In this document: in pieces, positions 29,909 through 64,000 of the stretch
Layout: each line of letters opens with the position of its first letter
Numbering within the stretch: position 1 is the stretch's first letter
Source of the DNA: Polyangiales bacterium
Lineage (GTDB): Bacteria > Myxococcota_A > Polyangia > Polyangiales > Polyangiaceae
NCBI GenBank assembly: GCA_038231275.1
Contig: JBBRLQ010000015.1
Span: forward strand, 64,001 to 128,000
Reading direction: 5' to 3'
Length of the DNA stretch: 64,000 bases
Made by a program: the position numbers and the translations under genes
Notes under the pieces: model-generated
Seen by the model: only the letters and a program-made list of their open reading frames with translations
What the model was told of the DNA's origin: nothing
The model's database searches: none

Positions 29909-30949
29909 TCAGGTCCCTTCGCCCTTGAGGACGAAGGCGAGGGCGGCTCCGCTCGTGTCGGCGAGATCGAGGCGCGGGCCCGGTGTCGTGAGCCACTCCG
30001 CGTGCTCGGCGGGGAGCGGCTCGATGGGGAGCGTGCGGACGTGGAGGTTCTCGGGAACGGCGTTGAACGCCGCGATGCAGACGTTGAGGATCTCGCTCAT
30101 CGCCGACGTCACCGCCTCGTTCGGGCTCCGCGTCTTGATCTGCTCGGCGACCTCGTGCTCCGGCAAGAGCATCAACTGCGCACCTTGCGAGATGACCGCC
30201 TCGAGGTTCGCCACGATCGCGCCGACGACGTTCTTCGCGTCGTCCGTGAGGAGGCACGTCCAGAGGTCTTTCGCGCCGAGATCGAGCGGCTTCTTCGACA
30301 CCGTGAGCTTGGATTTTTCGCCGGTCATCGCCGACATCTGCGCGACGAGCGCGTCTGCGGTCGGCAGGTGCACTGGAAACGCCGGCGCACGATGTCCGGG
30401 TGACGCGGCTTTTGGCGCGACGCGCGGCTTGGTCTCCGCGACCGCGGGCGCCTTCTCGCGCACGTCGGCGATCGCGTGTGTTGGAGCGCCGTTGGGCTCG
30501 CGCTCGAGGTGCGCGACCCGTCGCTGAAGCCGCTCTTGCGAAGCGCGAAGCTCACGTATTTCTTCGCGCATGAGGGTGAGCTCCAGCGACGGCGCCGCGA
30601 GGCCGACCAGCGCCGCATGCTCCGCCCCTTCGTCGCGACGCGCACGGTGCTTCGACGGCGACATCTGCGCCACGAAGGCCGCGGGGATCCAACGGCCCTC
30701 CTCTGCCTCGTAGCTGGCGCTCTCGCTGGACGCGTCGGCCATGAGGCGGCGAGCGTCACTCACGAGCGCGCGACCCTCGTCGCTGTTGGCGAGCTGGAAG
30801 AGGACGACCTCCGTGCCGGTCAGCCGCTGAATCGTCGGCCGAAGGACTCGCTCGTCGAGGGGGACCAGGCGCTCCACCTCCAGCACCCACGTCGCGGCGT
30901 CGCGGTAGAGTCGCCTCGGTTTCGCGCTGCTGAAATGTCCTACTCCCAC
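29909..30949 (-). CDS. Hypothetical protein with coiled coil and C-terminal CheC/CheX-like domain
   Basis: Coiled coil LMREEIRELRASQERLQRRVAHLE; SAMSEILN matches the S/D-x3-E-x2-N phosphatase motif; sigma28-type promoter upstream. Confidence 0.6.
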   Translation of the reverse strand: MGVGHFSSAKPRRLYRDAATWVLEVERLVPLDERVLRPTIQRLTGTEVVLFQLANSDEGRALVSDARRLMADASSESASYEAEEGRWIPAAFVAQMSPSKHRARRDEGAEHAALVGLAAPSLELTLMREEIRELRASQERLQRRVAHLEREPNGAPTHAIADVREKAPAVAETKPRVAPKAASPGHRAPAFPVHLPTADALVAQMSAMTGEKSKLTVSKKPLDLGAKDLWTCLLTDDAKNVVGAIVANLEAVISQGAQLMLLPEHEVAEQIKTRSPNEAVTSAMSEILNVCIAAFNAVPENLHVRTLPIEPLPAEHAEWLTTPGPRLDLADTSGAALAFVLKGEGT

Positions 30950-30956
30950 GTGAAAG

Positions 30957-30983
30957 CGAACGGCTCCGGGGGTCCGACCTTTA
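30957..30983 (-). promoter_or_regulatory. Sigma28 (FliA)-type promoter
   Basis: TAAA-N15-GCCGTTCG on the minus strand; both boxes identical to those of the flgM promoter. Confidence 0.75.
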
Positions 30984-31104
30984 GTCTCGGCGATCTGCGT
31001 CGTTCAAATGGCGCGAGGCGCCTCGGCGCTCTTCTCCGCGTCGTCGGCCAGGGCGACGATGAAGAAGGGAGCGAAGGCGCCTCGATTTCTTTCGAACCAG
31101 GCGA

Positions 31105-31617
31105 TCAGCGATTGCCCATCGCCATCTGCGGCTCGCCGGCGCGACGAGCGTTCGCGCGCGTCGTCGTCTGCGCGGGCGGCTCCGACGCGAGCCAGGTCGA
31201 GAGCGGCTCGCAGGCGGAGAGGTGGGTGCTGTCCAAGAGGACCTGCGCGCCCATGCGGGTCTCGGAGTCGACGATGATCGGCGCGACGAGGTTGACCGTC
31301 GGGGGAACGTCGGTGCCGGGAGCGGCGAAGACGAGCATGATCGACCACGTGCTCGGATCGTTCCCGATGCCCGCCGCGATCGCCGCGTTCATCATGGCCT
31401 CCTCGCCGTACTGGACCGCGAGCGCCTCGAGCGAGATGACCGGAAACGCGAGTGCCGGGTTCGTCGCCGAGTGCAGCCACGCGATGGGCGAGCCCTCACG
31501 CTGGCGGATGAGGAGGAACTTCGTCTCGTTGGCGAAGCCGATCATGCCGGCCGGAAAATCGATGAGATCCTTCTCGTCGATGGTGATGGTTCCGAAATTC
31601 GTGGTCTTGAAATTCAT
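31105..31617 (-). CDS. fliW: Flagellar assembly factor FliW
   Basis: TTNFGTITID...IDFPAGMIGF, WLHS, TVNLVAPIIVD..RMGAQV; GGGAG RBS. Confidence 0.85.
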   Translation of the reverse strand: MNFKTTNFGTITIDEKDLIDFPAGMIGFANETKFLLIRQREGSPIAWLHSATNPALAFPVISLEALAVQYGEEAMMNAAIAAGIGNDPSTWSIMLVFAAPGTDVPPTVNLVAPIIVDSETRMGAQVLLDSTHLSACEPLSTWLASEPPAQTTTRANARRAGEPQMAMGNR

Positions 31618-31667
31618 GTCGATGCTCCCTGGCTTTTGTTTTGTCGTGACGAGTCGCAAATGTTCGG

Positions 31668-32426
31668 TCAGGCGTTCGCCATCAGCGCCATGGCGGCGCG
31701 GCGGTCGGCGTCCTTGAAGGCTTCGATCACGCTCTGGCAGGCCTCGAAGCCTCGCGTCGCTCCGATGAGCTCGACCATCCCCTTCACGGCGGACACGTTC
31801 GACCCTTCGATGGACTTGGGCTCGAGCACCGCCGGGATCACCTTCGGCGCGCCGGCGCCCGGCGTCGCCTGGAAGAGAGCGGGCTCCGCCTTGCGCAGCT
31901 CGCCGGGCTTCGCGAAGCTTACGATTTGCAGCGTTCCGACCACCGATCCGCCTGCGCGGACAGTGCCATCGGGCGAGATCGAGGCGTCTATCGACGCCGG
32001 GGGCACCTTGATCGGACGCTTGTCGGTGCCGAGGTATGGGTGACCGTCGGGCGTGGTGAGCGTGCCGTCGGTCGCCACCTTCACGCCGCCGACGCGCGTG
32101 TATCGCTCGCCTTGCGGCGTCTTCACCGTGAACATCCCGTCGCCGCGGATCGCGACGTCGAGAGGCCGACCGGTCTGCGTGATCTGCCCGGGCGACATGT
32201 CGGGCGCGACGGCGTCGACGGCCGAATAGCGCACGTTCCGCCACTGCCCCTTCTGCACCGCGGCGTTCGCGCGCGCGGTGCTCGCGCGCGAGAGGATCTC
32301 CTTGAACATCGGGCGATCGGCGCGGAAGCCCGGCGTCGACGCGTTCGCGACGTTGTTCGCGGCGGTGTCGAGCACCGCCATCTGTCCCACGGCGCCCGAG
32401 AGCGCGCTCCAGATCCCGTCGCTCAT
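31668..32426 (-). CDS. flgF: Flagellar proximal rod protein FlgF
   Basis: ANNVANASTPGFR, TGRPLDVAIRGDG, YTR, IEGSNVSAV. Confidence 0.85.
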   Translation of the reverse strand: MSDGIWSALSGAVGQMAVLDTAANNVANASTPGFRADRPMFKEILSRASTARANAAVQKGQWRNVRYSAVDAVAPDMSPGQITQTGRPLDVAIRGDGMFTVKTPQGERYTRVGGVKVATDGTLTTPDGHPYLGTDKRPIKVPPASIDASISPDGTVRAGGSVVGTLQIVSFAKPGELRKAEPALFQATPGAGAPKVIPAVLEPKSIEGSNVSAVKGMVELIGATRGFEACQSVIEAFKDADRRAAMALMANA

Positions 32427-33151
32427 CGCTTCTTCACCTCACGGAGGGGCGGGGTCGGCTTCTTGGACTCGATGTGCGCGCGCATGCGGAGAATGGCCTC
32501 GCTGTGGAGCTGGCACGCGCGCGACTCGGTCACGCCGAGGATCGCTCCGATCTCTTTCAGGCTGCACTCGTCCTGGTAGTAGAGGCCTACGACGAGGCGG
32601 AGGCGCTCGGGCAGGTAGTCGACGGCGTCGGCGATGCGATCGACGAGCTCGTGCTGCGACGCGATGACGTCGGGCGCTTGGAACTCGCCCTCGCGCGGCG
32701 ACGCGACGTCGACGAGCTCGAGCTGCGTGACCTCGGCAGCGGAGACCTGTGCGAGCAAGTCCTGGTAATCGTCGAGCGGCAACCCGAGCTCGCTCGCGAT
32801 CTCCGGCTCCTCCGGCGCGCGGCCGAGGCGCAGCGAGAGCTCGCGGACCGCCGCGGTGATCTGGCGAGACGCGTTGCGCATCTTGCGCGACATCGGATCG
32901 AGGCTGCGCAGGTAGTCGAGGATGGCGCCGCGGATACGGTGCGACGCGTAGGCCTCGATCTCGTGCTCCGGCATGTCGGGGCCGCAGCGTCGCAGGGCCT
33001 CGGCGAGGCCGACCCACCCGGCGCCGAGCAGATCGTCGAGCGCGACCTCGCGCGGGAGCTTGCGCACCATCCGCATCGCGATGCGGCGGACCATGGGCAT
33101 GTACCGCTCGTACGAGCGCTTCGTGACCGGCGTGGCGGGCTGCGCGCTCAT
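32423..33151 (-). CDS. fliA: Flagellar sigma factor sigma28
   Basis: YASHRIRGAILDYLR; LYYQDECSLKEIGAILGVTESRACQLH; ATGA overlap with flhF. Confidence 0.92.
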   Translation of the reverse strand: MSAQPATPVTKRSYERYMPMVRRIAMRMVRKLPREVALDDLLGAGWVGLAEALRRCGPDMPEHEIEAYASHRIRGAILDYLRSLDPMSRKMRNASRQITAAVRELSLRLGRAPEEPEIASELGLPLDDYQDLLAQVSAAEVTQLELVDVASPREGEFQAPDVIASQHELVDRIADAVDYLPERLRLVVGLYYQDECSLKEIGAILGVTESRACQLHSEAILRMRAHIESKKPTPPLREVKKR

Positions 33152-34284
33152 GCCATCACCGGGAAGAGCGCCTGGAGCAGCGACTCGACGGTGGCGTCCT
33201 CGATGTCCTCGGGGACGCGCGGTCCCTTGCAGAGGTGGACGAGCGGGATGTTGCCGCGGAGCGCGGCGTGGACGGTGCCGCCGATTTGGTCGGTCTCGTC
33301 GAGCTTGGTGACGACGAGCCCCGTGGGCGTGCACGTCTCGTAGACCGAGTGGAGGCGCTCGACGTCGCGCGCGCGAATCATCGCGGGCACCGTGAGGAGC
33401 ACGTCGATCGCGCGATCCTTCGCGGAGCGCAGGCACTCGGCGAGCATGCCCATCGCGACGCGGTCGCTGGGGGCGCGGCTGGCGGTGTCGACGAGGACGA
33501 CGTCGGCGCGCTCGCACTTGGCGAGTGCGGCTGCGAACTGCTCGCGGTCGTTGGCGACCCAGAGAGGAACGCCCATGAGCTCGACGAAGCGGCGCATCTG
33601 CTCGACGGCACCGACGCGGTACGTGTCGAGCGTGATGACGGCGACCGAGCGTTCCTTCTCGAGGTGCGCGCGGGCGGCGAGCTTGGCGATCGTCGTCGTC
33701 TTGCCGACGCCCGTGGGACCGACGCAGGCGACGAGGCGGCGGCCGGGCTCGTCGACGGGACTACCCTTCACCGTGAGGCGAGAGGCGATGCGATCACGGA
33801 GCCACTTGCGGAGCTCGGCGCCGCCCTTGCCCAGCTTGCTCGCCCCTTGCGCGAGCTCGGTGGCGAGCGCGCCCTCGACTCCGACTGCGTTCAGCATCGC
33901 GACAGCGCGACCGCGCGGGCGCGTCGCGGTGGCGAGCTCCTCCAGCATGGCGCGAACGGCGCGGAGCTCGGCTTCCATCGTGGGATCGGCGCGCGGCGGC
34001 GTGGGCGTGGTCAGCGCCTTCGGGGGAAGCGGTGTCGCAAAGGCGGGGGCTCCCCCGCGGCGAAGCACCTCACGAACGAACGGGGCGGGCGTGCGGCTCG
34101 ACGACGGCGCACTGCGCTCTCCGCTCGTACCGGCGCGCACCTCGACGAACGAGGTCCCGAAGCCGCCGGCCTTCCCGTTCGTCACGTGCCGCGTCGACGC
34201 GATGACCGCCCGCGGCCCGTATGCGGCCTTCACGGCGGCGACCGCCTCTGCGACGTCTCTTCCTCGGAATGTCTCGAAGTTCAT
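33148..34284 (-). CDS. flhF: SRP-family GTPase FlhF
   Basis: N-terminal B-domain motif; GPTGVGKTTTIAKLAA, DTYR, TKLDET, VPEDI; G3 reads DTAS. Confidence 0.9.
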   Translation of the reverse strand: MNFETFRGRDVAEAVAAVKAAYGPRAVIASTRHVTNGKAGGFGTSFVEVRAGTSGERSAPSSSRTPAPFVREVLRRGGAPAFATPLPPKALTTPTPPRADPTMEAELRAVRAMLEELATATRPRGRAVAMLNAVGVEGALATELAQGASKLGKGGAELRKWLRDRIASRLTVKGSPVDEPGRRLVACVGPTGVGKTTTIAKLAARAHLEKERSVAVITLDTYRVGAVEQMRRFVELMGVPLWVANDREQFAAALAKCERADVVLVDTASRAPSDRVAMGMLAECLRSAKDRAIDVLLTVPAMIRARDVERLHSVYETCTPTGLVVTKLDETDQIGGTVHAALRGNIPLVHLCKGPRVPEDIEDATVESLLQALFPVMA

Positions 34285-34305: not shown

Positions 34306-36396
34306 TCACGCAGCGGCGGCGCGTATCGAAAGGGACTCGAAGGGCCGGATGGTCGTTTGGCTCTCGATCTCGCGGAACGAGAGGACGGAGAGGGTCGGGC
34401 AGCGGCGCTCCGCGAAGGCGCGGACGTAGCGACGCAAGTCGGGGCTCGTCACGAGGACCGGCGTGCGGCTGGCGGCGCGCATACGGGCGACCGATGCTTC
34501 GACCGCGAGGCCGAGCCGGCGCATGTCCTCCGGATCCAAAGCGCCGCCTGCGCCCGACGCGAGGTCGCGAAGCGAGCGGCGGAACATCTCCTCGATGCCC
34601 GGGTCCAGGACGAGCGCCGAGAGGATGCCGTCCGGTCCGCGGAAGTGTGCGCTGATCTGACGTGCGAGGCGTTGGCGCACCATCTCGGTGAGCTGCTCGG
34701 CGTCCTTGGTCGCGGGGGCGATCTCGATGAGGCCCTCCACGATGGTCCGCAGATCGCGGATGCTCACGCTCTCGCGCAGCAGATTGCGGACGACCTTCAG
34801 CACGTCTCCCATGGAGAGCAAGTTGGGTACCAAGTCGTCGACGAGCTTGGGCGTCGTGCGCGAGAAGACGTCGAGAAGGTGCTGGAGGTCGGTGCGGCCG
34901 ACGAGCTCGGCGGCGTGCGTGCGAACGAGCTCGCCCAGATGTGTCGCGATGATCGTCGCGTGATCGACCACCGCGTACCCGAGCGCCTCAGCCATCTCGC
35001 GATCCCGCGTCATCACCCAGCGCGCCGGCGTGCCGAAGACCGGATCGGTGCCCGCCTCGCCCGCCATCTCCGGCGCGGTGCCCGAGTCGTTCATCGCGAG
35101 CAGGCGCCCCGAGCGGAGCTGCGTGCGCGCCACTTCGGTGCCGAGCATCATGAAGCGGTACTCGGACGGCGCGAGCTCCAGGTTGTCGCGGATGCGAACG
35201 GGCGGAAGAATGACGCCCAGATCGAGGGCGTATTGACGCCTCAGCGAGCCGATGCGGTCGAGGAGGCTGCCTCCGTTGCTCCCGTCGACGGCGGAGATGA
35301 GCTCGTACCCCACCTCGAGCGCGAGCGCGTCGAGCGGCAGCGAAGACTCTATCTCCTCGGCCGGTGTCGGCGCCGCCTTGACCTCGGTCGGCTCGGCCGA
35401 CTTGTCACCGTCGACGGTCTTCATCTTCCACGCGCGCGCGCCGAGCGCGGTAGCGAGCGCGAGGAAGGGGAACGCCGGCATCCCCGGGATGAGCGCGAAG
35501 AGCGCCAAGACCCCGGCGGTCAGACCGACAGCGCGACGACTCCCCAGCATCTGCGTCGACAGCGCGCGGCCGATTTGCTCGCCGGCAGCGGAGCGCGTCA
35601 CGACGACGCCAGACGCGGTGGAGATGAGGAGTGAGGGGATCTGCGACACGAGCGCGTCGCCGACCGAGAGGATCGAGAAGGTCTCCGCCGCGTGCGCGAT
35701 GTCCATCCCCGACGCGACGCCGATGAGGAGACCGCCGACGAGGTTGACGAACGTGATGAGGAGGCCCGCGACCGCGTCGCCGTGGACGAACTTGCTGGCG
35801 CCGTCCATCGCGCCGAAGAAGTCGGCTTCGCGCTCGACGTCTTTTCTGCGCTTTTTGGCGATCTCCGCGTTGATCAGGCCCGCGTTCAGGTCCTGATCGA
35901 TCGCCATCTGCTTGCCGGGCATCGCGTCGAGGGTGAAGCGCGCGGCGACCTCGGCCACGCGTCCGGCGCCCTTCGTGATGACGACGAAGTTGATGATCAC
36001 GAGGATCATGAACACGACGAGGCCGACGACCACGTTGCCGCCGACGACGAAGCGCCCGAACGTCTCGACGACGCGACCGGCCGAGCCGTTGCCCTCCGCG
36101 CCGTGGAGGAGAATGAGGCGCGTCGTGGCGACGTTCAGGCTGAGCCGAAGCAGCGTGGCGACGAGGATGACCGTCGGGAAGACGCTGTACTCGAGCGCCT
36201 GCTCGATGAAGAGCGCGATGAGGAACACGCTCACCGCCACCGCGAGGCTGATCGCCAAGAGGCCGTCCAGGAGGAACGGCGGCAGCGGGATCACCATCAC
36301 GAGGATGATGCTCAGGAAGGCGATGGGGACCGCCAAGGATCCGACGCCCACCTTGCTGGCTGCGGTGGCGTTCGCGGTGGCGGCGGAAGTGGACAC
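34306..36396 (-). CDS. flhA: Flagellar export gate protein FlhA
   Basis: GRVAEVAARFTLDAMPGKQMAID, FFGAMDGASKFV. GTG 36396 preferred as start because ATG 36432 overlaps a sigma54 motif. Confidence 0.95.
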   Translation of the reverse strand: MSTSAATANATAASKVGVGSLAVPIAFLSIILVMVIPLPPFLLDGLLAISLAVAVSVFLIALFIEQALEYSVFPTVILVATLLRLSLNVATTRLILLHGAEGNGSAGRVVETFGRFVVGGNVVVGLVVFMILVIINFVVITKGAGRVAEVAARFTLDAMPGKQMAIDQDLNAGLINAEIAKKRRKDVEREADFFGAMDGASKFVHGDAVAGLLITFVNLVGGLLIGVASGMDIAHAAETFSILSVGDALVSQIPSLLISTASGVVVTRSAAGEQIGRALSTQMLGSRRAVGLTAGVLALFALIPGMPAFPFLALATALGARAWKMKTVDGDKSAEPTEVKAAPTPAEEIESSLPLDALALEVGYELISAVDGSNGGSLLDRIGSLRRQYALDLGVILPPVRIRDNLELAPSEYRFMMLGTEVARTQLRSGRLLAMNDSGTAPEMAGEAGTDPVFGTPARWVMTRDREMAEALGYAVVDHATIIATHLGELVRTHAAELVGRTDLQHLLDVFSRTTPKLVDDLVPNLLSMGDVLKVVRNLLRESVSIRDLRTIVEGLIEIAPATKDAEQLTEMVRQRLARQISAHFRGPDGILSALVLDPGIEEMFRRSLRDLASGAGGALDPEDMRRLGLAVEASVARMRAASRTPVLVTSPDLRRYVRAFAERRCPTLSVLSFREIESQTTIRPFESLSIRAAAA

Positions 36397-36415: not shown

Positions 36416-36431
36416 TGCGATCCACGTGCCA
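36416..36431 (-). promoter_or_regulatory. Sigma54 promoter for flhA-flhF-fliA-flgF-fliW
   Basis: TGGCACGTGGATCGCA (GG-N10-GC). Confidence 0.7.
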
Positions 36432-40406: not shown

Positions 40407-40431
40407 CGCCTCCACTCGGGGAAGCGAGAGT

Positions 40432-47986: not shown

Positions 47987-48029
47987 GGAGGGGGTGGCGA
48001 GTCGTGCTGCGCACGAAGTGCGGGAGCTT

Positions 48030-50974: not shown

Positions 50975-50990
50975 TGGCGCGCAGCTTGCT
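50975..50990 (+). promoter_or_regulatory. Sigma54 promoter upstream of the FleQ-like activator
   Basis: TGGCGCGCAGCTTGCT. Confidence 0.75.
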
Positions 50991-52345: not shown

Positions 52346-52371
52346 CTAGCTGAGCGTTGGAGGAGACAACC

Positions 52372-56073: not shown

Positions 56074-56078
56074 CCCAA

Positions 56079-57530: not shown

Positions 57531-58663
57531 TGAAACGCATGCATTTTACACGCATTCCGCGCCTCGCCGCTCTCCTGCTGACGCTCCTCGCGATCCTCGG
57601 GGTCGTGAGGCCGGCGAAGGCCGACCGCATCGGCGATCTGTGCGAGGTCGTCGGAGCGCGCGAGAACCAGCTGCTCGGGTACGGCATCGTCACCGGCCTC
57701 AACGGCACCGGCGACGACGCCTCGGCGCCCTTCGCGACGCAGTCGCTGCTCGCGCTCATGCGCCGCCTCGGCGTGCAGATCGATCCGGTGCAGCTGCGCC
57801 TGAAGAACGTCGCCGCTGTCCTCGTCACCGCGACGGTCCCGCCGTTCTCGCGGCAAGGCACGCACCTCGACGTGACGGTCTCGTCGGTCGGCAACGCGCG
57901 GTCGCTGCAAGGCGGCGTGCTGGTGCAGACGCTGATGATGGGCGCCGATCTCCACGTGTACGCCGTCGCGCAGGGTCCGCTCGTCCTCGGCGGCTTCGAA
58001 GCGAAGGGCGGCGGGAGCAGCATCAAGTCGAACTCCACCAGCACCGCGCGTGTGCCGAACGGTGCGCTCATCGAAAAGGAGATCACGACGACGTTCGCGA
58101 AGGACGACGTCATCCTCCTGGCGCTGCGGAGAGCCAATTTCGCGACGGCCGCGCGCATCGTCGAGGCGGTCGACAAGGAGCTCGGCCCCGGCAGCGCGAG
58201 CGCGACCGACTCGGGGGCGGTGAAGGTGAAGCTGCCCGCCAGCCTGAAAGGTCAGCCGGTGCAGGCGCTCGCGAAGCTCGAGCAGATCGACGTCATCCCG
58301 GTCAACGCCGCGCGCGTCGTCATCAACGAGCGCACCGGCACGATCGTGGCGGGGGGCGATGTGCGCCTCATGCCGGTCGCCATCGCGCAGGGCGGAATCA
58401 CCATCGTGATCAAGGAGACGCCCCAGGTCTCGCAGCCCGCTCCGTTCAGCAAGGGCACGACCGTCGTGACTCCACTGACCGATATTCAGCACTTCGAAGG
58501 CAACGACAAGGCGCCGACCCTCACGTACCTCGACGCCGCCGCGTCGCTCGCCGACGTCGCCCACGCGCTCTCCACGCTCGGCGTCACGCCGCGCGAGCTC
58601 GCGAGCATTCTCCAGGCGTTGAAGAGCGCAGGGGCCCTCAGCGCCGAGCTGGTGATGCAATGA
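57530..58663 (+). CDS. flgI: P-ring protein FlgI
   Basis: RENQLLGYGIVTGLNGTGD, KNVAAVLVTA, VVINERTGTIV. Confidence 0.95.
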   Translation: MKRMHFTRIPRLAALLLTLLAILGVVRPAKADRIGDLCEVVGARENQLLGYGIVTGLNGTGDDASAPFATQSLLALMRRLGVQIDPVQLRLKNVAAVLVTATVPPFSRQGTHLDVTVSSVGNARSLQGGVLVQTLMMGADLHVYAVAQGPLVLGGFEAKGGGSSIKSNSTSTARVPNGALIEKEITTTFAKDDVILLALRRANFATAARIVEAVDKELGPGSASATDSGAVKVKLPASLKGQPVQALAKLEQIDVIPVNAARVVINERTGTIVAGGDVRLMPVAIAQGGITIVIKETPQVSQPAPFSKGTTVVTPLTDIQHFEGNDKAPTLTYLDAAASLADVAHALSTLGVTPRELASILQALKSAGALSAELVMQ

Positions 58664-59004
58664 GCCGCGTCGGTCGCGCCGCCGTCCCCGCGCCTGTGGT
58701 CGCACCTGCCGATGCCCCGGCGCCTGCGCCGTCGCCCGAGGCGGACAAGAAGCTCCACCAAGCCAAGGACGCCGCGCAGAAGTTCGAGGCGATTTTCTTG
58801 CGCCAGATGCTCTCGGGCCTCGAGAAGACCAACAAGATCGGCCAGGGCGGCGGCTCGAAGTCCAGCGGAAGCGCGGGCGGAATCTACGGTTCGATGATGG
58901 TCAACTCGCTCGCCGACTCGATCTCGCAGTCGGGCGGCGTGGGGCTGGCGGACGTCATCTTGCGAGCCCTTCAGGGGACGCCGACGGGAGCGCCAAAGAA
59001 ATGA
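58660..59004 (+). CDS. flgJ: Rod-binding protein FlgJ (no muramidase domain)
   Basis: AAQKFEAIFLRQML...GGVGLADVI; 114 aa. Confidence 0.85.
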   Translation: MSRVGRAAVPAPVVAPADAPAPAPSPEADKKLHQAKDAAQKFEAIFLRQMLSGLEKTNKIGQGGGSKSSGSAGGIYGSMMVNSLADSISQSGGVGLADVILRALQGTPTGAPKK

Positions 59005-59016: not shown

Positions 59017-59043
59017 TAAAGTCGGTGGGTGGGATGCCGTTCG
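59017..59043 (+). promoter_or_regulatory. Sigma28 (FliA)-type promoter for flgM
   Basis: TAAA-N15-GCCGTTCG. Confidence 0.75.
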
Positions 59044-59110: not shown

Positions 59111-59395
59111 ATGAAGATCGACAATAGGGTGCTGAACGCTTACCAGCGAACGGGCGTGACCGGCGTGACCGGGAAGGCCGCCCCGCAAGCGCCTGCCCCC
59201 GCCGCGAAGCACGACTCGCCCAGCGCAGGGGAGGCCACGAAGGTCACCATCAGCGCCGAGGCCCGCGCGCTCGCGAAGACGTCGCCGGATTTCGATCCCG
59301 CGAAGGTCGACGCGCTGAAGTCCAAGGTCGACAAGGGTGAGTACAAAGTGGACAGCCACAAGGTGGCCCAACGTTTGCTGGATAAGCTGGCGTAA
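59111..59395 (+). CDS. flgM: Anti-sigma28 factor FlgM
   Basis: VTISAEA...KVDALKSKVDKGEYKVDSHKVAQRLL. Confidence 0.9.
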   Translation: MKIDNRVLNAYQRTGVTGVTGKAAPQAPAPAAKHDSPSAGEATKVTISAEARALAKTSPDFDPAKVDALKSKVDKGEYKVDSHKVAQRLLDKLA

Positions 59396-59416: not shown

Positions 59417-59773
59417 ATGCATGACATCCTCAAAGACCTGGAGCACCTTCTCGTAGAAGAGCGCTCTGCCATTCGCAAGCTCGACACCACCACGATCGAG
59501 CTCGCGGCCACCAAGAAGACCGAGCTCGAAACCAAGCTGAGCGCCGCGATCGCCGCCGGTGAAAAAGCGACGAAGGGGGATCACGAGATCCTCGAGCGCG
59601 TGCGCGCTGCGGCGCGGGCGAATCAGCTCCTCCTCGTGCACGCGAGGGCCTGCGTTCGCGGCGTCGTCGCGCTCGTGAGCGGGAAGATGCCGGACGCGTA
59701 CCCGTCCGTCGCAAACGCCGCGACTCCGGCTGCAGTTGCTGCGCCGGCCGTCCGCGTCAACATGACGGGTTGA
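59417..59773 (+). CDS. flgN: Chaperone FlgN
   Basis: Position flgM-X-flgK; helical LEHLLVEERSAI...ANQLLL. Confidence 0.7.
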   Translation: MHDILKDLEHLLVEERSAIRKLDTTTIELAATKKTELETKLSAAIAAGEKATKGDHEILERVRAAARANQLLLVHARACVRGVVALVSGKMPDAYPSVANAATPAAVAAPAVRVNMTG

Positions 59774-61152
59774 CCGTGGGCTTGAACGGCCTGCTCGGTC
59801 TCGCCCGTGACGCGCTGGCGGCGAACTCATTCGCCCTCGACGTCACCGGCCAGAACGTCGCGAACGTGAACACGCCCGGCTACGTCCGCCGGAGCGCCAT
59901 TCTCCAGACACGGATCGCCGGAAATGTGACGTACGGCGGCGTCGACGCGCTCGGCGTCCAGCGCTCCGTCGATCAGTTCGTCGATGCGCGCGTGTACGAC
60001 GCCACCGGCAACGCCGCGAGCGCGCAGACGCGCGACGGGCAGCTCGCCGGCGTCGAGGGCCTGTTCAACGACACCAACGGGACCGGGCTCGGAAGCTCCA
60101 TTTCGGCGCTTTTTGGCTCATTTTCTGCCCTTTCGGCGAGCCCCACCGACGACGCCGCGCGGGCCAACGTGCTCTCGCGCGCCGAAGATTTCGCGTCGCG
60201 CCTCCGCGACACAAGCGCGACGATCCAGACGCAGCGGCAGGACGAGCTCACGCAAGCCGGCGACGTCACCAAGAGCGCGAACGATCTCGCGAGCCAGATC
60301 GCGAAGCTCAACGAGCAGATCAAGGCCGCCGAGAACGTCGGCGGCGACGCGTCCGATCTCCACGACAAGCAGGGATCACTCGTCGGCCAGCTGAGCCAGC
60401 TCGTCGACGTGCACACGTTCACCGACGCGCACGGGCAGCTCGTGGTCCGCGCCGCGGGAGCCACGCTCGTCGAGGGCAACGCCGCGGGCAGCCTCAGCGT
60501 CACCACCGACGCCGCCGGCGCCATGCGCCTCATGATGAACCGTCCGCAAGGCAGCGCGATCGACGTGACCGCGCACTTGACCGGCGGCCAGCTCGCCGGG
60601 CTCAAAGAGGTCCGCGACAACGACGCCACCGCGGTGCTCGCGCGCCTCGACCAACTCGCGAAGGACGTCGGCAACGCCGTCAACGCGCAGCATATGTCCG
60701 GCTTCGGCACCGACGGCTCCACCGGCAACGCAGTATTCAGCGGCACCGGCAGCGCGGCCACGATCGCGCTCGACGCCGGCATGGTCGGTCACCCCGAGAA
60801 GGTCGCCGCCTCGAGCAGCGCGGCCGACGTGCCCGGCGGATCAGGAAACGCGGTGGCGCTCGCCGCGCTCTCGACCAAGCCGATCGTCGGCGGATCCATC
60901 ACGGCGGCCGATGCATACGGCGGCCTCGTGGGTGACATCGGGCAGCGAAAGGCGCAGGCCGCGCAGGACAGCGATCTCCGCGGCTCGATGAAAGCCCAGG
61001 TCGAGGCGATGCGCTCGAGCCAAGAGGGCGTCTCCGTCGACGAAGAGATGATCAACCTCACCAAGTACCAGCGCGCCTACGAGGCGGCCTCGAAGCTCGT
61101 CAGCACCGCCGACCAGCTTCTTCAACAACTGATGAATGAGGTCGGTCGATGA
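59770..61152 (+). CDS. flgK: Hook-filament junction protein FlgK
   Basis: LDVTGQNVANVNTPGYVR, GVSVDEEMINLTKYQRAYEAA. Confidence 0.95.
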   Translation: MTVGLNGLLGLARDALAANSFALDVTGQNVANVNTPGYVRRSAILQTRIAGNVTYGGVDALGVQRSVDQFVDARVYDATGNAASAQTRDGQLAGVEGLFNDTNGTGLGSSISALFGSFSALSASPTDDAARANVLSRAEDFASRLRDTSATIQTQRQDELTQAGDVTKSANDLASQIAKLNEQIKAAENVGGDASDLHDKQGSLVGQLSQLVDVHTFTDAHGQLVVRAAGATLVEGNAAGSLSVTTDAAGAMRLMMNRPQGSAIDVTAHLTGGQLAGLKEVRDNDATAVLARLDQLAKDVGNAVNAQHMSGFGTDGSTGNAVFSGTGSAATIALDAGMVGHPEKVAASSSAADVPGGSGNAVALAALSTKPIVGGSITAADAYGGLVGDIGQRKAQAAQDSDLRGSMKAQVEAMRSSQEGVSVDEEMINLTKYQRAYEAASKLVSTADQLLQQLMNEVGR

Positions 61153-62030
61153 GAGTCAGCGATGGAATGCGGCTCGAGAGCATGACGCAGCAACTCGCGC
61201 AGCTCTCGCAACGCGAGCTCACGGCGTCGCGACAGGCCTCGACGGGAATGCGCCTCAGCGCGCCCAGCGACGATCCGGTGGCGGCGGCGCAGGCGGCGCG
61301 CGTGCAGGCGTCCCTCGACGCGACGGACGGGTACCGGACCACGATCCGCGACGTGCGCGGAGACGTGGACCTCGCAGAGACCACGCTGGCGAGCGCCGGG
61401 GACATCCTTACGCGCGCCGGGGAGCTCGCGATGCAAGGCGCGAACGGCTCGCTGAACGCCAGCGACCGCGCGGCGCTCGGGCAAGAGGTCGCGCAACTGA
61501 AGGACCAGATGGTGACGCTCGCCAACGCGAAGGGCAGCACGGGCTACCTGTTCGGTGGGACGGCGAGCACCACGCCGCCGTTCGACGCCGCCGGGACATT
61601 TGCGGGAAATCCGAACGACCGCGTCGCGGCGGTGGGCGCCAACGTGAGCATGACGGTGAGCGTCAACGGAGCAACGGCCTTCACGGCGGCCGGCGGGCGC
61701 GACGTGTTCACCGAGCTCTCGAACCTCCAGACGGCGCTCTCCACGAACAACGTCGCCGCGCTCTCGCCGAGCGTCGCCACGCTGGACGGCGCGCGCCGCC
61801 AAGTCCTCGCCGCGCGCCTCGACGCCGGCACCAAGCTCGCGCGCCTCGACACCGCCGACGCCGCGCACCAGGCCGGCCAGACGACGCTCGCGACGCAGCG
61901 ATCGGGGCTCTTGCAGATCGATCCTGCGGCCGCGTACACGCAGCTCCAAGCGACGCAGGCCGCCGTCGAGCAGTCCATCGCCGTCGCGCGCAGCACGCTG
62001 GCGACGCTGTCGCAGAACCGATTCGGCTGA
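61149..62030 (+). CDS. flgL: Hook-filament junction protein FlgL
   Basis: MRVS, STGMRLSAPSDDPVAA, YLFGG. Confidence 0.9.
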   Translation: MRVSDGMRLESMTQQLAQLSQRELTASRQASTGMRLSAPSDDPVAAAQAARVQASLDATDGYRTTIRDVRGDVDLAETTLASAGDILTRAGELAMQGANGSLNASDRAALGQEVAQLKDQMVTLANAKGSTGYLFGGTASTTPPFDAAGTFAGNPNDRVAAVGANVSMTVSVNGATAFTAAGGRDVFTELSNLQTALSTNNVAALSPSVATLDGARRQVLAARLDAGTKLARLDTADAAHQAGQTTLATQRSGLLQIDPAAAYTQLQATQAAVEQSIAVARSTLATLSQNRFG

Positions 62031-62033
62031 CGT

Positions 62034-62049
62034 TGGCACCTCCGGTGCA
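62034..62049 (+). promoter_or_regulatory. Sigma54 promoter for csrA-maf
   Basis: TGGCACCTCCGGTGCA followed by an AAGGAG RBS. Confidence 0.7.
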
Positions 62050-62075
62050 TCGTTCCTCTCGAAGGAGACGGAACG

Positions 62076-62345
62076 ATGCTCATGATCTCGCGTCGCATCG
62101 GTGAAAGCATCTGCATTGGGGACGACGTCGAGATCGTCATCAAGGAGATCCACCGCCGTACCGTGAAGCTCGCCGTGAAGGCGGGCCCTCGCCAGTTGAT
62201 CCTCCGCGGTGAGCTGCGCGCGTCGATCGAGGCGGCAAACCGCGCCGCCACCACGACCGCGCCCGACTTCCAGCTGCCCGCGCCGGCGGCCGCGGCCGTG
62301 CACGCGTCGGAGCGGCCTCGCACGGTTCCCCCGGGGACGCCGTGA
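62076..62345 (+). CDS. csrA: Carbon storage regulator CsrA (flagellar, FliW-regulated type)
   Basis: MLMISRRIGESICIGDDVEIVI...LRGEL...ANRAA with C-terminal extension. Confidence 0.85.
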   Translation: MLMISRRIGESICIGDDVEIVIKEIHRRTVKLAVKAGPRQLILRGELRASIEAANRAATTTAPDFQLPAPAAAAVHASERPRTVPPGTP

Positions 62346-64000
62346 ACGACGCGCCCGCCGGCGCGTTCGCGCGCGCGATGCTGGAAGGGAACGTCGAGGC
62401 CTTGGGCCTCACGGGCCTGAGCCTGCTCGCGCTTCGCGACGCGACCCCACGCGGGCGCTACGTGATCCTCGACGACGGCAGCCCGGCGATCGACCTCGGA
62501 GACATGCTCCTCGATCGCTCGGCCGATCCGCGCGCACACGAGGAGCTCCTCGCGTCGCTCGAGCGCACCGCGCAGGACGTCATCCTCTTGTTCGGCGTCG
62601 GCGCCGGGCACATCGCTCGCTCGCTGCGTGATCGCTCGCGCGCGAGCGTGATCATCTACGAGCCAGACCCCGGCGTCCTGCGCACGGTGCTCGAGGCCGG
62701 CCCCTGCGATCTCGGCGGCGTTCCCGTCGTGTGCGACATGAACGACCTGAAGGCGGTGTGGCAGCGTCACTCGCGCGCGCGTCCGGCGGCGACGACGGTG
62801 CAGACGCCCGGGTACGCCGAGGCGTTCCCCGCGGAGCTGGAGCGCGTCGTCGCGACCGTCCGCGAGATGCTGAACGACGAGCAGTGCGTAGAGAACACAC
62901 GTCGTGTGCGCTTCCGCCAGTGGATTGACAACCTCGTCGCCAACCTGCCGGCGGTCGCCGGCGCGGTGCCGTGCAACTCGCTCCGCGGCCGCTTCGCGGG
63001 GATGCCCGCGTTCGTGGTCGGCGCCGGCCCGTCGCTCGACGTCAACATCGAGGTGCTCCGGGAGGCGAAGAAGCGCGGCCTCGTCATCGCGGTGAACAGC
63101 AGCGCGTCGGCGCTCGCGGCGGCCGGGATCGCTCCGGACGTCATCGTCTGCATCGAGTCCCTCGACCTCTCGGCGAAGCTCGCTGCGCTCCCCTTCATCG
63201 AGGACGTCCCGCGCATCTTCAGCCTCTCGTCGCATCCCAACAACCTCGCGGTCGGAAGCGGTCCGCTCCTGCCGGTGATCGAGAAGCTCCCGGCGTTCGA
63301 GACCGTGAGCGAGCTGCTCCGTGGCCCCGGCGCCGAGGTCGGCGGCAGCGTCTCCACCGTCGCGTTCTGGGTGGCCAAGCTGCTCGGCTGCTCACCGCTC
63401 GTCCTCGTGGGACAGGATCTCGCCTTCACCGGCTACGGCACCTACGCGAAGGGCACGAGCTACGAAGAGAGCCGAGCGGTGGTTGGCGCCGACGGAAAGA
63501 CGCTGGAATTCGTGTGGAACGACGCGATCACCAAAGCGCACGGCACCGCCGCAGGTCCACTCGCGAAGCGCGCCGATCTCGTCATGGTCGACGCGTGGGG
63601 CGGCGAGGGACTCGTGCCCTCGGGCGTCATGTTCGCGTCCTTCCGCGCGTGGTTCGAGGTCGCCGCCGCGGTGTTCGCGGTGACCGATCCCGAGATCACG
63701 CTCGTCAACGCGACCGAGGGCGGCTCGCGCATCCACGGTTTCGCCGAGGAGCGCCTCGCGGATCTCGTCGCGAAGCTGCCGGTTCGTGACGTCCCGCCGG
63801 CCGACGAGCTCGCGCGCCTCGCGCGGAGGGAGCTCCCGGTCACGTCGCGCGAGCTCGCGGGGTGGGCCGAGAAGCAAGCCAACCTCGCGCGCCAGGCGTG
63901 CCGCGCGGCCCGACGCGTCGGCGTCTGCGCCGCGCACGCGATTGACCTGCTCGAGAAAGGCGCCGAACCCGACGCCATGAATCGCGCGTTCGACGCGGTC
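62342..64000 (+). CDS. Motility-associated factor (Maf/MAF_flag10) flagellin glycosyltransferase, 3' truncated
   Basis: My own translation (not in the ORF track because it has no stop): LLFGVGAGH, IYEPD, VVGAGPSL, GGSVS, LVGQDLAF, NATEGG; GTGA overlap with csrA. Confidence 0.85.
   Translation, partial: MNDAPAGAFARAMLEGNVEALGLTGLSLLALRDATPRGRYVILDDGSPAIDLGDMLLDRSADPRAHEELLASLERTAQDVILLFGVGAGHIARSLRDRSRASVIIYEPDPGVLRTVLEAGPCDLGGVPVVCDMNDLKAVWQRHSRARPAATTVQTPGYAEAFPAELERVVATVREMLNDEQCVENTRRVRFRQWIDNLVANLPAVAGAVPCNSLRGRFAGMPAFVVGAGPSLDVNIEVLREAKKRGLVIAVNSSASALAAAGIAPDVIVCIESLDLSAKLAALPFIEDVPRIFSLSSHPNNLAVGSGPLLPVIEKLPAFETVSELLRGPGAEVGGSVSTVAFWVAKLLGCSPLVLVGQDLAFTGYGTYAKGTSYEESRAVVGADGKTLEFVWNDAITKAHGTAAGPLAKRADLVMVDAWGGEGLVPSGVMFASFRAWFEVAAAVFAVTDPEITLVNATEGGSRIHGFAEERLADLVAKLPVRDVPPADELARLARRELPVTSRELAGWAEKQANLARQACRAARRVGVCAAHAIDLLEKGAEPDAMNRAFDAV

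Follow-up and report, generated by a model that had tools for sequence, protein, structure and literature searches.

The question raised by this locus is whether a bacterium related to the gliding myxobacteria, which are supposed to lack flagella, carries a flagellum of its own. To our knowledge, Anaeromyxobacter is the only cultured flagellated myxobacterium. The initial annotation of this DNA named Anaeromyxobacter as the known exception with flagellar genes, correctly so according to the available part of PMC2330069. We analyzed a 64-kb window (the whole stretch of DNA under study, part of a 213-kb contig), in which ORFs were called by codon bias and families were assigned by Pfam and NCBIfam profile searches. 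We consider it likely that its flagellar genes are resident, passed on vertically, and maintained by selection, and that they specify an external diderm-type flagellum in an uncultured Polyangiales/Polyangiaceae-labeled Myxococcota bacterium whose lineage probably swims.

Gene calling gave 67 genes over the whole window and 42 within 29909-64000, here called the block. Flagellum-specific families account for 36 of these 42 ORFs, with one sigma-54 activator in addition, while five (g26, g43, g55, g56, and g63) had no significant match in Pfam or NCBIfam; this agrees with the intact cluster of about 40 flagellar genes described initially. A minus-strand run of 24 genes, from flgB to fliW, carries the genes of the basal body, export apparatus, and hook together with FlhF and FliA:

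31105..31659, minus: fliW (Pfam FliW 7.6e-22)
31668..32426, minus: flgF, proximal rod (NCBIfam TIGR02490, 179.9 bits, cut-off 178.5)
32423..33151, minus: fliA, sigma-28 (NCBIfam FliA_WhiG, 206 bits, cut-off 189.6)
33148..34284, minus: flhF, SRP-type GTPase (NCBIfam TIGR03499, 202 bits, cut-off 174)
34306..36396, minus: flhA (Pfam FHIPEP 1.2e-252, profile positions 1-656 of 657)
36445..37509, minus: flhB (Pfam Bac_export_2 2.5e-97; NPTH motif at residue 267)
37513..38286, minus: fliR (Pfam Bac_export_1 4.8e-46)
38283..38552, minus: fliQ (Pfam Bac_export_3 2.1e-23)
38549..39211, minus: fliP (Pfam FliP 7.1e-72)
39208..40056, minus: fliO (Pfam FliO 1.5e-10 short form, 2.7e-10 long form)
40053..40415, minus: fliN (NCBIfam TIGR02480, 101.3 bits, cut-off 84)
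40432..41307, minus: divergent fliM-like switch protein, 291 aa (FliMN_C 2.6e-17)
41304..41879, minus: fliL (Pfam FliL 7.7e-10)
41884..43182, minus: flgE, hook (Pfam FlgE_D2 1.9e-30, rod N- and C-terminal domains)
43204..43902, minus: flgD, hook cap (Pfam FlgD 1.4e-22, FlgD_ig 9.6e-21)
43910..44515, minus: short fliK-like protein, 201 aa (Pfam Flg_hook 1.7e-07)
44512..44958, minus: g43, fliJ candidate by its position between fliI and fliK and a weak Pfam match
44955..46268, minus: fliI, export ATPase (Pfam ATP-synt_ab 1.6e-88, T3SS_ATPase_C 1.5e-22)
46265..46987, minus: fliH (Pfam FliH 4.8e-14 short form, 1.2e-13 long form)
46974..48014, minus: fliG (Pfam FliG_N, FliG_M, and FliG_C, the last 2.2e-37; EHPQ and MFTF motifs)
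48030..49658, minus: fliF, MS ring (Pfam YscJ_FliF 9.7e-60, YscJ_FliF_C 5.9e-37)
49666..49998, minus: fliE (Pfam FliE 3.6e-20)
49995..50417, minus: flgC (NCBIfam TIGR01395, 158.8 bits, cut-off 102)
50435..50827, minus: flgB, start of the run (NCBIfam TIGR01396, 67.6 bits, cut-off 59)

Divergent from these genes, a plus-strand run opens with a sigma-54 activator, FlbD, and MotAB, continues with the distal rod and rings and FlgM, and ends with the junction proteins, CsrA, and a Maf-like enzyme:

51127..52320, plus: g51, sigma-54 enhancer-binding protein (Pfam Sigma54_activat 1.1e-72, HTH_8 7e-13)
52357..52686, plus: flbD (Pfam FlbD 1.6e-19)
52700..53479, plus: motA (Pfam MotA_ExbB 2.2e-30, MotA_N 5.5e-11)
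53522..54376, plus: motB (Pfam MotB_plug 7.8e-22, OmpA 2.1e-17; Asp22 within YADFIT)
54373..54885, plus: g55, small secreted protein (Pfam OMP_b-brl E 5.7e-4, below cut-off)
54911..55240, plus: g56, small Cys-containing protein with acidic tail (no Pfam or NCBIfam family)
55288..56073, plus: flgG, distal rod (NCBIfam TIGR02488, 347 bits, cut-off 252.75)
56070..56825, plus: flgA (Pfam ChapFlgA 8.8e-06; NCBIfam flgA_cterm below cut-off)
56826..57530, plus: flgH, L ring (Pfam FlgH 1.3e-49)
57527..58663, plus: flgI, P ring (Pfam FlgI 1.6e-123)
58660..59004, plus: flgJ, 114 aa, rod-binding domain only, without muramidase domain (Pfam Rod-binding 1.5e-07)
59111..59395, plus: flgM, anti-sigma-28 (NCBIfam TIGR03824, 61.8 bits, cut-off 40.75)
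59417..59773, plus: g63, flgN candidate flanked by flgM and flgK (top Pfam match FlgN, weak and below cut-off, E 0.015)
59770..61152, plus: flgK (Pfam FlgK_D1 9.6e-53)
61149..62030, plus: flgL (NCBIfam TIGR02550, 190.8 bits, cut-off 127)
62076..62345, plus: csrA (Pfam CsrA 1.1e-13; NCBIfam csrA 54.9 bits, below cut-off 70.1)
62342..64000, plus: Maf-like (MptE/DUF115) protein continuing past the window end (Pfam MptE-like 1.1e-31)

Judged by these families, the two runs are predicted to encode an MS ring (FliF), a C ring (FliG, the FliM-like protein, and FliN, with FliL also present), a rod (FlgB, FlgC, FlgF, FlgG, and FliE, with rod-binding FlgJ), P and L rings with their chaperone (FlgI, FlgH, and FlgA), a hook (FlgE, FlgD, and the short FliK-like protein), a hook-filament junction (FlgK and FlgL), and one MotAB stator, served by an export gate (FlhA, FlhB, FliO, FliP, FliQ, and FliR) and an ATPase complex (FliH and FliI). 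FlbD, the regulators FlhF, FliA, FlgM, FliW, and CsrA, and the Maf-like MptE protein complete the set. The last is a putative flagellin glycosyltransferase, its NCBIfam PseD domain match (75 bits) lying far below cut-off. No truncated or frameshifted gene was seen in the block, as claimed initially, since the large proteins match their Pfam profiles over the full length; the many gene overlaps also noted then were recovered as 4-nt overlaps at 17 of 41 junctions. By inspection, the motifs that we take to be functional are intact in FlhB (NPTH at residue 267), MotB (Asp22), and FliG (EHPQ and MFTF, that is, MFxF), as is the FliI P-loop (GAGVGKST), and FliI also has LLVMDS. The start of fliO was called at 39807, the longest ORF, from 40056, giving 282 aa (325 aa in the orthologue of a related species, L001), and that of fliH at 46798, with a longer ORF of 240 aa from 46987.

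Several components are less regular. The FliM-like protein reaches 80 bits against NCBIfam fliM, far under the cut-off of 219.6, its PDB FliM/FliN matches span the C-terminal domain only, and no recognizable N-terminal CheY-docking peptide was found in it; it is kept in four relatives at 39-86% identity. The fliK-like orthologue in L001 is 70% identical and of similar length. For g43, the best of the weak Pfam matches, FliJ, stays below cut-off (E 0.045) and spans profile positions 3-121 of 123, and g55 overlaps motB by 4 nt and weakly resembles outer-membrane beta-barrels. No flhG follows flhF, and flagellin, FliD, FliS, FlhG, and any che gene are absent within the 64-kb window; the filament genes must lie beyond it. 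The short FliK, the divergent FliM-like protein, and the lack of filament and che genes in 64 kb were all counted against the flagellar reading.

Regulatory genes and promoter-like sites accompany both runs:

26817..27785, minus: g24, sigma-54 enhancer-binding protein without receiver domain (Pfam Sigma54_activat 5.5e-67 and HTH_8)
27884..29893, plus: g25, hybrid histidine kinase, REC-PAS-HK-REC (Pfam)
29909..30886, minus: g26, 325 aa, behind a sigma-28-like promoter
30959..30983, minus: sigma-28-like site TAAAG-N14-GCCGTT, intergenic, about 70 nt upstream of g26
36417..36431, minus: sigma-54-like site TGGCAC-N5-TCGC, upstream of flhA
50975..50989, plus: sigma-54-like site with one mismatch in the 299-nt divergent intergenic region
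59017..59041, plus: sigma-28-like site TAAAG-N14-GCCGTT, upstream of flgM

The g24 gene, which is situated outside the block as first delimited (29909-64000), probably belongs to the flagellar regulatory module; orthologues lie beside the flagellar genes in L001 (88%) and in another related locus, L008 (56%). A 91% orthologue of g25 occupies the same position in L001, as does a PAS hybrid kinase in L008, and g25 is a probable sensor for the adjacent activator, its best NCBIfam matches being the Myxococcus EspA/EspC kinases, below cut-off. In g51, Pfam detected neither a receiver nor a FleQ domain, and the NCBIfam matches are to generic enhancer-binding proteins, below cut-offs. For g26, neither Pfam, NCBIfam, nor PDB gave a match and none of 10 loci has a homologue; its Atlas match (score 0.85), a cluster of hypothetical proteins in which Myxococcota is the commonest phylum, is a lead only.

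The claim that promoter motifs are present held for sigma-54-like and sigma-28-like sites in intergenic gaps and failed for sigma-70-type sites and terminators, which occur at chance level in the window. Of the 42 sigma-54-like sites that retain the full GG/GC core, nine fall between genes, although intergenic sequence makes up only 4.1% of the window, and eight of these nine stand upstream of flagellar genes in the correct orientation; several leave no more than 12-29 nt before the called start codon, little room for a leader. In 6 of 8 related loci, flhA is preceded by the same element as in the window. TAAAG-N14-GCCGTT occurs twice in the window against 0.18 expected, a statistic that is circular because the motif was derived from these two sites; with a third copy in L008 (position 14828, after flgF), all three occurrences are intergenic in flagellar loci. 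The canonical sigma-28 pattern is not enriched in the window (18 found, 14.7 expected).

From the established roles of these protein families, we propose that the basal-body, export, and stator genes would be switched on by sigma-54 together with either or both of the receiver-less activators, and perhaps also the neighboring hybrid kinase, and that an internal sigma-54 promoter may precede flhA-flhF-fliA. Once the hook-basal body is complete, FlgM would be exported and FliA freed to transcribe late genes from the TAAAG-N14-GCCGTT promoters. FliW and CsrA may gate flagellin translation, the Maf-like enzyme may glycosylate flagellin, and FlhF may position the machine at the pole.

Does this gene set belong to its supposed host? 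A chimeric or misbinned contig, or "Polyangiaceae bacterium" labels mis-assigned from an ordinarily flagellated other phylum, would make the host something other than a myxobacterium. Host placement is indeed second-hand, coming from submitters' labels in record titles and NCBI protein names; the window holds no rRNA, tRNA, or ribosomal protein gene, and no myxobacteria-specific NCBIfam family reaches cut-off in the flank. However, the junction recurs: L001, an independent assembly, has the same order (fliW, hybrid kinase, activator, g20, g19; 80-92% protein identity), and therefore the contig is not chimeric at that point. Two flank genes, cpoB/ybgF of the tol-pal group and pssA, score above their NCBIfam cut-offs and place the block in a chromosomal context.

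Flank and flagellar proteins independently give the same labels. An FlhA search of species-representative genomes found 9 of 10 loci in Myxococcota-type MAGs, labeled Myxococcales, Sorangium, Polyangiaceae, Myxococcota, or Deltaproteobacteria. With proteins clustered at the 90% identity level, at least 120 clusters, some on contigs of up to 1.37 Mb, are at least 65% identical to the window FlhA, and among the best 120 matches 13 have organism names (11 Polyangiaceae, 1 Myxococcales, and 1 Deltaproteobacteria bacterium). The flank ABC protein has six named matches at 56-59% identity (4 Deltaproteobacteria bacterium, 2 Polyangiales) and seven others at 47-50% (Nocardia, Opitutaceae, and Armatimonadota). 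The relatives' contigs (0.3-7.3 Mb) come from several submitters with concordant labels. The Polyangiaceae-type host suggested initially thus stands as far as labels go, and a non-myxobacterial host appears improbable. The host is an uncultured lineage in which the flagellar cluster is the rule, and nothing supports the undescribed swimming or dispersal stage of a fruiting myxobacterium that had been imagined. The gene set recurs in many related environmental genomes, and so swimming is probably normal in this branch.

Flagellar clusters are known to move as blocks, and the nearest FlhA clusters beyond the Myxococcota-labeled clade are only 44-51% identical and without organism labels, which leaves room for recent acquisition of an island from an unnamed non-myxobacterial donor. 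Yet the block resembles its flanks, as first noted: GC1/2/3 is 0.688/0.483/0.898 against 0.686/0.496/0.903, codon use is equal, and tetranucleotide r is at least 0.97 among all 8-kb chunks of the window, a uniformity that also speaks against a foreign host. The window showed neither an integrase nor a tRNA nor a repeat boundary. Compared with L001, 18 of 18 flagellar orthologue pairs have dN/dS of 0.048-0.371, and their dS (0.28-0.74) overlaps that of four flank genes (0.50-0.69; flank omega 0.09-0.24); the flagellar genes are kept under purifying selection. In an FlhA tree of 49 rows (IQ-TREE, SH-aLRT support, FastTree in agreement), the window falls within an 11-row clade (100) with a long stem, many internal branches, and Polyangiaceae-type labels throughout. 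Its sister group (98) is an 18-row clade that takes in every row labeled Myxococcota, Myxococcales, Nannocystaceae, or Polyangiales, along with one row labeled "Pseudomonadota bacterium" and one labeled "Acer saccharum", which count against the host placement. Recent acquisition is therefore very unlikely. Given the junction in L001, the low dN/dS with flank-like dS, and the Myxococcota-type labels of the sister clade, the flagellum is probably old, resident, and working, rather than a recent import, relic, or injectisome.

The cluster is less novel than first supposed, because it is widespread among deposited MAGs and Polyangia-class MAGs with flagellar assembly genes have already had a passing mention, in the accessible part of bioRxiv 10.1101/2021.07.06.451402. 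Flagellum-gene expression was also reported for pooled Myxococcota (23) and Bdellovibrionota (12) MAGs, the phylum not being specified in the accessible text (PMC11937823). We found no dedicated description of such a Polyangia cluster in the literature.

Finally, the machine could serve something other than swimming: it might have been repurposed for secretion, in the manner of the "Myxo" non-flagellar T3SS, or be a relic in decay. Reduced flagellum-derived T3SS loci occur in Myxococcales (PMC3459982, as partly available), FliO is present in such loci of Myxococcota (bioRxiv 10.1101/2025.05.06.652439, likewise in part), and the absence of filament genes from the window and the divergent FliM-like protein would fit. 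Against this, parts used in motility only are conserved (MotA, MotB, FliG, FliL, FlgE, FlgK, FlgL, FlgH, FlgI, FliA, and FlgM), omega is low in all 18 genes compared, no gene in the block is truncated, and FliW, CsrA, and Maf are meaningful only alongside a flagellin; we give such a device or relic very little credence. The "repurposed flagellum-like machine" of the initial annotation is likewise contradicted by the stator, switch, hook, junction, and P/L-ring genes that the block contains, each kept by purifying selection.

The genes of the window were called by codon bias (a strict GC3 filter was discarded, as it missed genes), yielding 67 genes that cover about 96% of its length; the 283 six-frame ORFs of at least 80 aa are uninformative at this G+C, which runs from 66.5 to 73.8% in 2-kb steps and shows no compositional step at 29.9 kb. 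For the lower-GC loci of related genomes the caller was trained per locus, since the window-trained caller failed there. From position 29909 to the window end we found 42 ORFs, 36 of them in flagellum-specific Pfam or NCBIfam families, one sigma-54 activator and five without significant match. Two of these five occupy the places expected of fliJ and flgN, and their best sub-threshold matches are FliJ and FlgN themselves. The gene list of the initial annotation, which had described an intact flagellar supercluster, was thus correct, with fliJ and flgN as candidates by place and weak match. The cluster is laid out as follows, candidates in brackets.

50827 down to 31105, minus strand, run of 24 genes: flgB-flgC-fliE-fliF-fliG-fliH-fliI-(fliJ)-fliK-flgD-flgE-fliL-fliM-fliN-fliO-fliP-fliQ-fliR-flhB-flhA-flhF-fliA-flgF-fliW
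29909-30886, minus strand, g26, an unknown ORF after fliW
Between the minus and plus runs, a divergent gap of 299 nt
Plus-strand run: sigma-54 activator, flbD, motA, motB, two small unknown ORFs, flgG, flgA, flgH, flgI, flgJ, flgM, (flgN), flgK, flgL, csrA, Maf-like gene

Overlaps of 4 nt occur at 17 of the 41 gene junctions, and the large proteins span their Pfam profiles end to end. All six proteins of the export gate (FlhA, FlhB, FliP, FliQ and FliR, with FliO) are above the Pfam cut-off, the large ones at full length; in the ATPase complex FliI and FliH are above cut-off, and FliJ is placed by position and a sub-threshold match only (E 0.045). FliF, FliG and FliN exceed Pfam or NCBIfam cut-offs, as do the rod, ring, hook and junction proteins FlgB, FlgC, FlgF, FlgG, FliE, FlgH, FlgI, FlgE, FlgD, FlgK and FlgL. 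The stator comprises MotA (MotA_ExbB and MotA_N domains) and MotB (MotB_plug and OmpA domains, conserved Asp kept). FlhB NPTH, the FliI P-loop, the MotB Asp and FliG EHPQ and MFxF, which we take to be essential catalytic or structural motifs, are all present. FlgJ has the rod-binding domain only, and the Maf-like gene continues past the window end. The block is an ordinary flagellar regulon, and the machinery itself is ordinary.

Neither flagellin nor fliD nor fliS was found among the 67 genes by Pfam and NCBIfam, the sole Flagellin_N match being FlgL; this absence applies to the 64-kb window, which is part of a 213,206-bp contig, and not to the genome. The window likewise holds no flhG and no che genes. 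We also considered a non-flagellar type III secretion system, either an injectisome or the 'Myxo' type of Myxococcales. The latter occurs in the same phylum and shares homologues of the export gate, ATPase and inner ring, but in the accessible part of its description the Myxo loci are without motility-essential elements, whereas the window has all of these except filament genes (PMC3459982). Since the motility parts are present and no secretin or needle family occurs among the 67 genes (Pfam), such a system was rejected.

The genes of the flank are those of an ordinary chromosome.

1-26789, genes 1-23: ordinary chromosomal genes, including
Molybdopterin oxidoreductase fragment
Tol-pal gene cpoB/ybgF and pssA, both above NCBIfam cut-offs
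K+ channel; yfcH-type oxidoreductase
Branched-chain amino-acid ABC transporter
SDR, amidohydrolase and copper monooxygenase-like protein
FGE-sulfatase-domain protein; double GT4 glycosyltransferase

Directly upstream of cpoB/ybgF, a LysM protein (2878-5111, minus strand) gives a weak sub-threshold FlgT_C match (E 7.8e-4); its role is probably in the envelope and not in the flagellum. The gene at 7962-9176 (plus strand) encodes 404 aa with a collagen triple-helix repeat (Pfam E 7.1e-7) and adjoins that of a 622-aa HEAT-repeat protein.

In base composition, flank and cluster are closely similar. GC1/2/3 is 0.686/0.496/0.903 in the flank versus 0.688/0.483/0.898 in the block, the codon frequencies of the two correlate at r = 0.98, and between all eight 8-kb chunks the tetranucleotide profiles show r of at least 0.97, which upholds the earlier remark that the cluster resembles its flanks and, with the family matches, confirms the observation of a flagellar cluster. 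A genome scan with FlhA recovered L001, a locus of a related species (95% identical in the best segment, 119-kb contig), and eight remoter loci at 65-70%. The flagellar gene order of L001 is that of the window, and its flank junction also corresponds, with fliW, the hybrid kinase (91-92%), the receiver-less activator (88%), g20 (82%) and g19 (80-81%); g26 and g21-g23 are not found in L001. Thus the flank-block join, where a chimera would have had to arise, recurs in an independent assembly. Against L001, dN/dS is 0.048-0.371 in 18 of 18 flagellar orthologues with dS of 0.28-0.74, two paralogue rows having been removed (g51 against the L001 activator and g57 against L001 flgF), and four flank genes give omega of 0.09-0.24 and dS of 0.50-0.69. 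Purifying selection thus acts on the block, which is as old in the lineage as its flank. Contig integrity at the join and dN/dS, both raised in the initial annotation, speak for a native and intact cluster, and the flagellar regulon is, as judged from sequence comparison, native, old and maintained.

The stretch missing from L001 (region compared there, 17459-20006) spans g21-g23 (window 21883-26789, between g20 and g24), namely the FGE-sulfatase-domain gene, the 862-aa double GT4 glycosyltransferase and an unknown ORF, and represents an indel adjoining the flagellar regulators.

No rRNA, tRNA, ribosomal protein or marker gene was detected in the window by Pfam, Rfam and tRNA scans, and the evidence on the host consists of the organism labels of relatives, so that the lineage is label-inferred. 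By these labels, the nearest relatives of both flank and cluster proteins are of Myxococcota type. Nine of the ten loci from the FlhA scan belong to MAGs named Myxococcales bacterium (3), Sorangium sp. (2), Polyangiaceae, Myxococcota, Deltaproteobacteria and 'delta proteobacterium' (1 each), the tenth being Acetobacter at 40% identity. In a set of 5.8 billion proteins the best 120 FlhA relatives are all at least 65% identical, some on contigs of 0.47-1.37 Mb, and the 13 labelled ones read Polyangiaceae bacterium (11), Myxococcales (1) and Deltaproteobacteria bacterium (1). For a fused LivG/LivF-type ABC ATPase of the flank, labelled matches at 56-59% are Deltaproteobacteria bacterium (4) and Polyangiales bacterium (2), followed at 47-50% by Nocardia (4), Armatimonadota (2) and Opitutaceae (1). 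The hybrid kinase g25 has Myxococcus EspA/EspC kinases as its best NCBIfam matches, below cut-off. The cluster is frequent in publicly available genomes of uncultured relatives. The initial interpretation, an undescribed swimming or dispersal stage or a repurposed machine in a supposedly non-flagellated myxobacterium, is partly supported: the native, intact system and the label-supported myxobacterial host stand, and the finding is less novel than proposed, with an ordinary machinery.

We then placed FlhA in trees calculated with FastTree (101 rows) and IQ-TREE under LG+C20 (49 rows), both without Anaeromyxobacter. The clade of the window FlhA has 13 rows and support 100 in the former, 11 rows and SH-aLRT 100 in the latter, and a long stem in both; the rows were picked as relatives, so that the clustering is partly by construction, but the labels were not picked. 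Clustering at 50% collapses the entire Polyangiaceae-labelled FlhA group into one cluster, the next clusters being 44-52% identical. IQ-TREE joins the window clade, with support 98, to a sister clade of 18 rows, whose labels were obtained by a profile search with its two representatives. Fifteen of the 120 best matches are labelled, as Deltaproteobacteria bacterium (6), Myxococcota (3), Myxococcales (2) and, with one match each, Nannocystaceae, Polyangiales, Pseudomonadota bacterium and 'Acer saccharum'; one match lies on a 7.3-Mb contig. The trees and labels fit a flagellum that would long have been inherited vertically within Polyangia-type Myxococcota. The FlhA deposited under the plant name Acer saccharum (P0431), which belongs to this Myxococcota-labelled sister clade, most likely comes from a bacterial contaminant in a plant assembly.

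Two sigma-54 activators were found, g51 inside the cluster and g24 just outside, and neither has a receiver or FleQ domain by Pfam and NCBIfam; g24 adjoins the hybrid kinase, and this g24/g25 pair stands beside the cluster again in L001 and L008. The sigma-54 pattern is mildly enriched overall (60 matches versus 44.9 expected), the signal being in the positions of the sites. With the site defined as TGGCAC-N5-TTGC, at most two mismatches and GG and GC intact, there are 42 sites, nine of them intergenic versus 4.1% of the window being intergenic (binomial p 4.6e-5, approximate because intergenic composition differs). Eight of the nine point at flhA, flgB, g51, flbD, motB, flgG, flgM and csrA. 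The element before flhA, TGGCAY-N5-TCGC, is kept in six of eight related loci despite protein identities of 65-95%, and thus constitutes a phylogenetic footprint. Sigma-54-like sites at 36417-36431, 50841-50855, 52330-52344 and 53494-53508 end 12-20 nt before the called start codons, which means either very short leaders or some start codons further downstream than called.

The window has exactly two copies of a sigma-28-like motif, TAAAG-N14-GCCGTT, one ahead of flgM and one ahead of g26 (30959-30983), and L008 carries a further copy with an N13 spacer in the intergenic space following flgF; the motif was derived from the same data, so that its count against shuffles is circular. The canonical sigma-28 pattern with three mismatches is not enriched (18 versus 14.7 expected), sigma-70 promoters and terminators between 29000 and 64000 are at chance level, and Rfam and tRNA scans of the window returned nothing. 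From the known roles of these families, sigma-54 would act ahead of FliA/FlgM in a cascade, FliW and CsrA may gate flagellin translation, flagellin would be glycosylated in a Maf-dependent way and FlhF could direct the placement of the flagellum.

Several components depart from the familiar pattern. The FliM-like protein (291 aa) scores 80 bits versus the NCBIfam fliM cut-off of 219.6 and matches known FliM in its C-terminal FliN-like domain only; it is 39-86% conserved in four relatives, with the GGxG motif kept.

40432-41307, minus strand, FliM-like protein of the window
L001 4842-5717, FliM-like relative
L004 4264-5181, FliM-like relative
L007 2385-3095, FliM-like relative
L008 5197-6066, FliM-like relative

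A search with the motif of the N-terminal CheY-docking peptide found it neither in this protein nor in any of the 67 window proteins, and a structure model from a five-row alignment (pLDDT 45.9) was too low for a fold search. No flhG/fleN lies between flhF and fliA in the window (32423-34284) or in the nine related loci L001-L009; in the window flhF passes directly to fliA with a 4-nt overlap. The 325-aa g26 has no Pfam, NCBIfam or PDB match, an Atlas lead only (score 0.85) and no homologue in L001 or the other loci, being specific to this genome among the loci compared; its single-sequence structure model (pLDDT 40.1) was also too low for a fold search. The C-terminal part carries S-x3-E-x2-N, presumably resembling the CheC/CheX/FliY phosphatase motif, with no Pfam or PDB match behind the likeness. 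Its position corresponds to that of the genes for large HDOD proteins after fliW in relatives, where HDOD or GGDEF-HDOD proteins are encoded either there or between flhB and flhA.

L003 4833-6641, HDOD-type gene
L004 14552-16606, HDOD-type gene
L005 5877-8543, HDOD-type gene
L007 14621-17464, HDOD-type gene
L008 16272-18209, HDOD-type gene
L009 4670-6468, REC-GGDEF and HDOD genes

L008 encodes a REC-GGDEF-HDOD protein, and in L009 REC-GGDEF and HDOD belong to two distinct genes, which lie between flhB and flhA. These genes hint that the motor may be under c-di-GMP-linked control. Between flhB and flhA, a HAD-family hydrolase is also found in L004 (9166-9840) and L005 (2-1107), upstream of the conserved sigma-54-like flhA site, and the L005 insert includes a GNAT acetyltransferase.

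Judging from this locus and its many relatives, purifying selection maintains a complete-looking flagellar apparatus in a sizeable uncultured portion of the Polyangiaceae-labelled radiation. We tentatively propose a wider picture, one we consider rather doubtful as a whole, in which a large, widespread and entirely uncultured Polyangiaceae-labelled clade would consist of swimmers with an unusually wired motor and a flagellum ancestral to Polyangia. The ancestral flagellum would then be common to the Nannocystaceae-, Polyangiales- and Myxococcota-labelled lineages, and all cultured fruiting myxobacteria would have lost it secondarily. The wiring in this tentative picture (no FlhG, a FliM without CheY-docking peptide, receiver-less activators, and HDOD/GGDEF proteins in relatives) would point to control by second messengers instead of classical chemotaxis.

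In textbooks, myxobacteria stand for movement without flagella. This picture was drawn from soil isolates in culture, Anaeromyxobacter being the known exception (PMC2330069). If placement and microscopy confirm the swimmers, the reconstruction of ancestral Myxococcota motility changes, cultivation could be guided towards liquid, motility-based enrichment, and gliding, pili and flagella become comparable within one lineage. The value of the finding is to myxobacterial natural history, for ancestral motility and for the strategy of cultivation, rather than in mechanism, where it brings nothing new.

The polar flagella of Pseudomonas and Vibrio follow a sigma-54 then sigma-28 hierarchy (FleQ/FlrA, FleSR, FlhF/FlhG, FliA/FlgM), and CsrA, FliW, FlbD and Maf are known from Bacillus, Campylobacter, spirochaete and deltaproteobacterial systems. 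The window resembles the former in its sigma-54 activators within the cluster, a sigma-54-type promoter before flhA-flhF-fliA, FlhF, and FliA/FlgM for late genes, but differs in that FlhG/FleN is missing, the activators have no receiver or FleQ domain, and CsrA, FliW, FlbD and Maf are present.

In the literature searched, no title or abstract was devoted to Polyangiaceae flagella or to flagellar loss in myxobacteria. As far as the accessible parts of the reports go, flagellar genes were noted in Polyangia MAGs from Zodletone, which represent a novel order and a novel family and not Polyangiaceae (10.1101/2021.07.06.451402), and flagellum and pilus genes were among the most expressed in the seamount MAGs of a 2025 paper, Myxococcota being pooled with Bdellovibrionota (PMC11937823). 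Both concern likewise uncultured Myxococcota, but are one-line mentions without locus anatomy. Similarly, FliO variants with LysM or AMIN domains are described in Myxococcota genomes (10.1101/2025.05.06.652439), and a 2026 preprint surveying T6SS and flagella counts Myxococcota among 'motile phyla' (10.64898/2026.06.16.732483), each in the part available. In further Myxococcota papers flagella are named only as background or in the titles of references, or not at all.

Among the closest described systems is that of Anaeromyxobacter (PMC2330069), and its citation in the initial annotation as the flagellated exception was borne out. A. dehalogenans 2CP-C has one flagellar cluster of 55.7 kb with over 30 genes, motA and motB among them; strain K was observed to swim, its describers argue for an ancient and not a recent origin of the cluster, and other myxobacteria are said to be without flagellar genes. 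It shares with the window organism the phylum Myxococcota and a single large cluster with motA and motB, but is cultured and belongs to the Cystobacterineae/Myxococcia branch. The A. dehalogenans cluster contains fliC and embedded che genes, with fliJ, flgN, fliT, flgA, flgJ and fliK reported missing; compared with this published description rather than with the sequence itself, the window cluster has no che or fliC, but carries flgA, a rod-binding flgJ, a fliK-like gene, and fliJ and flgN candidates.
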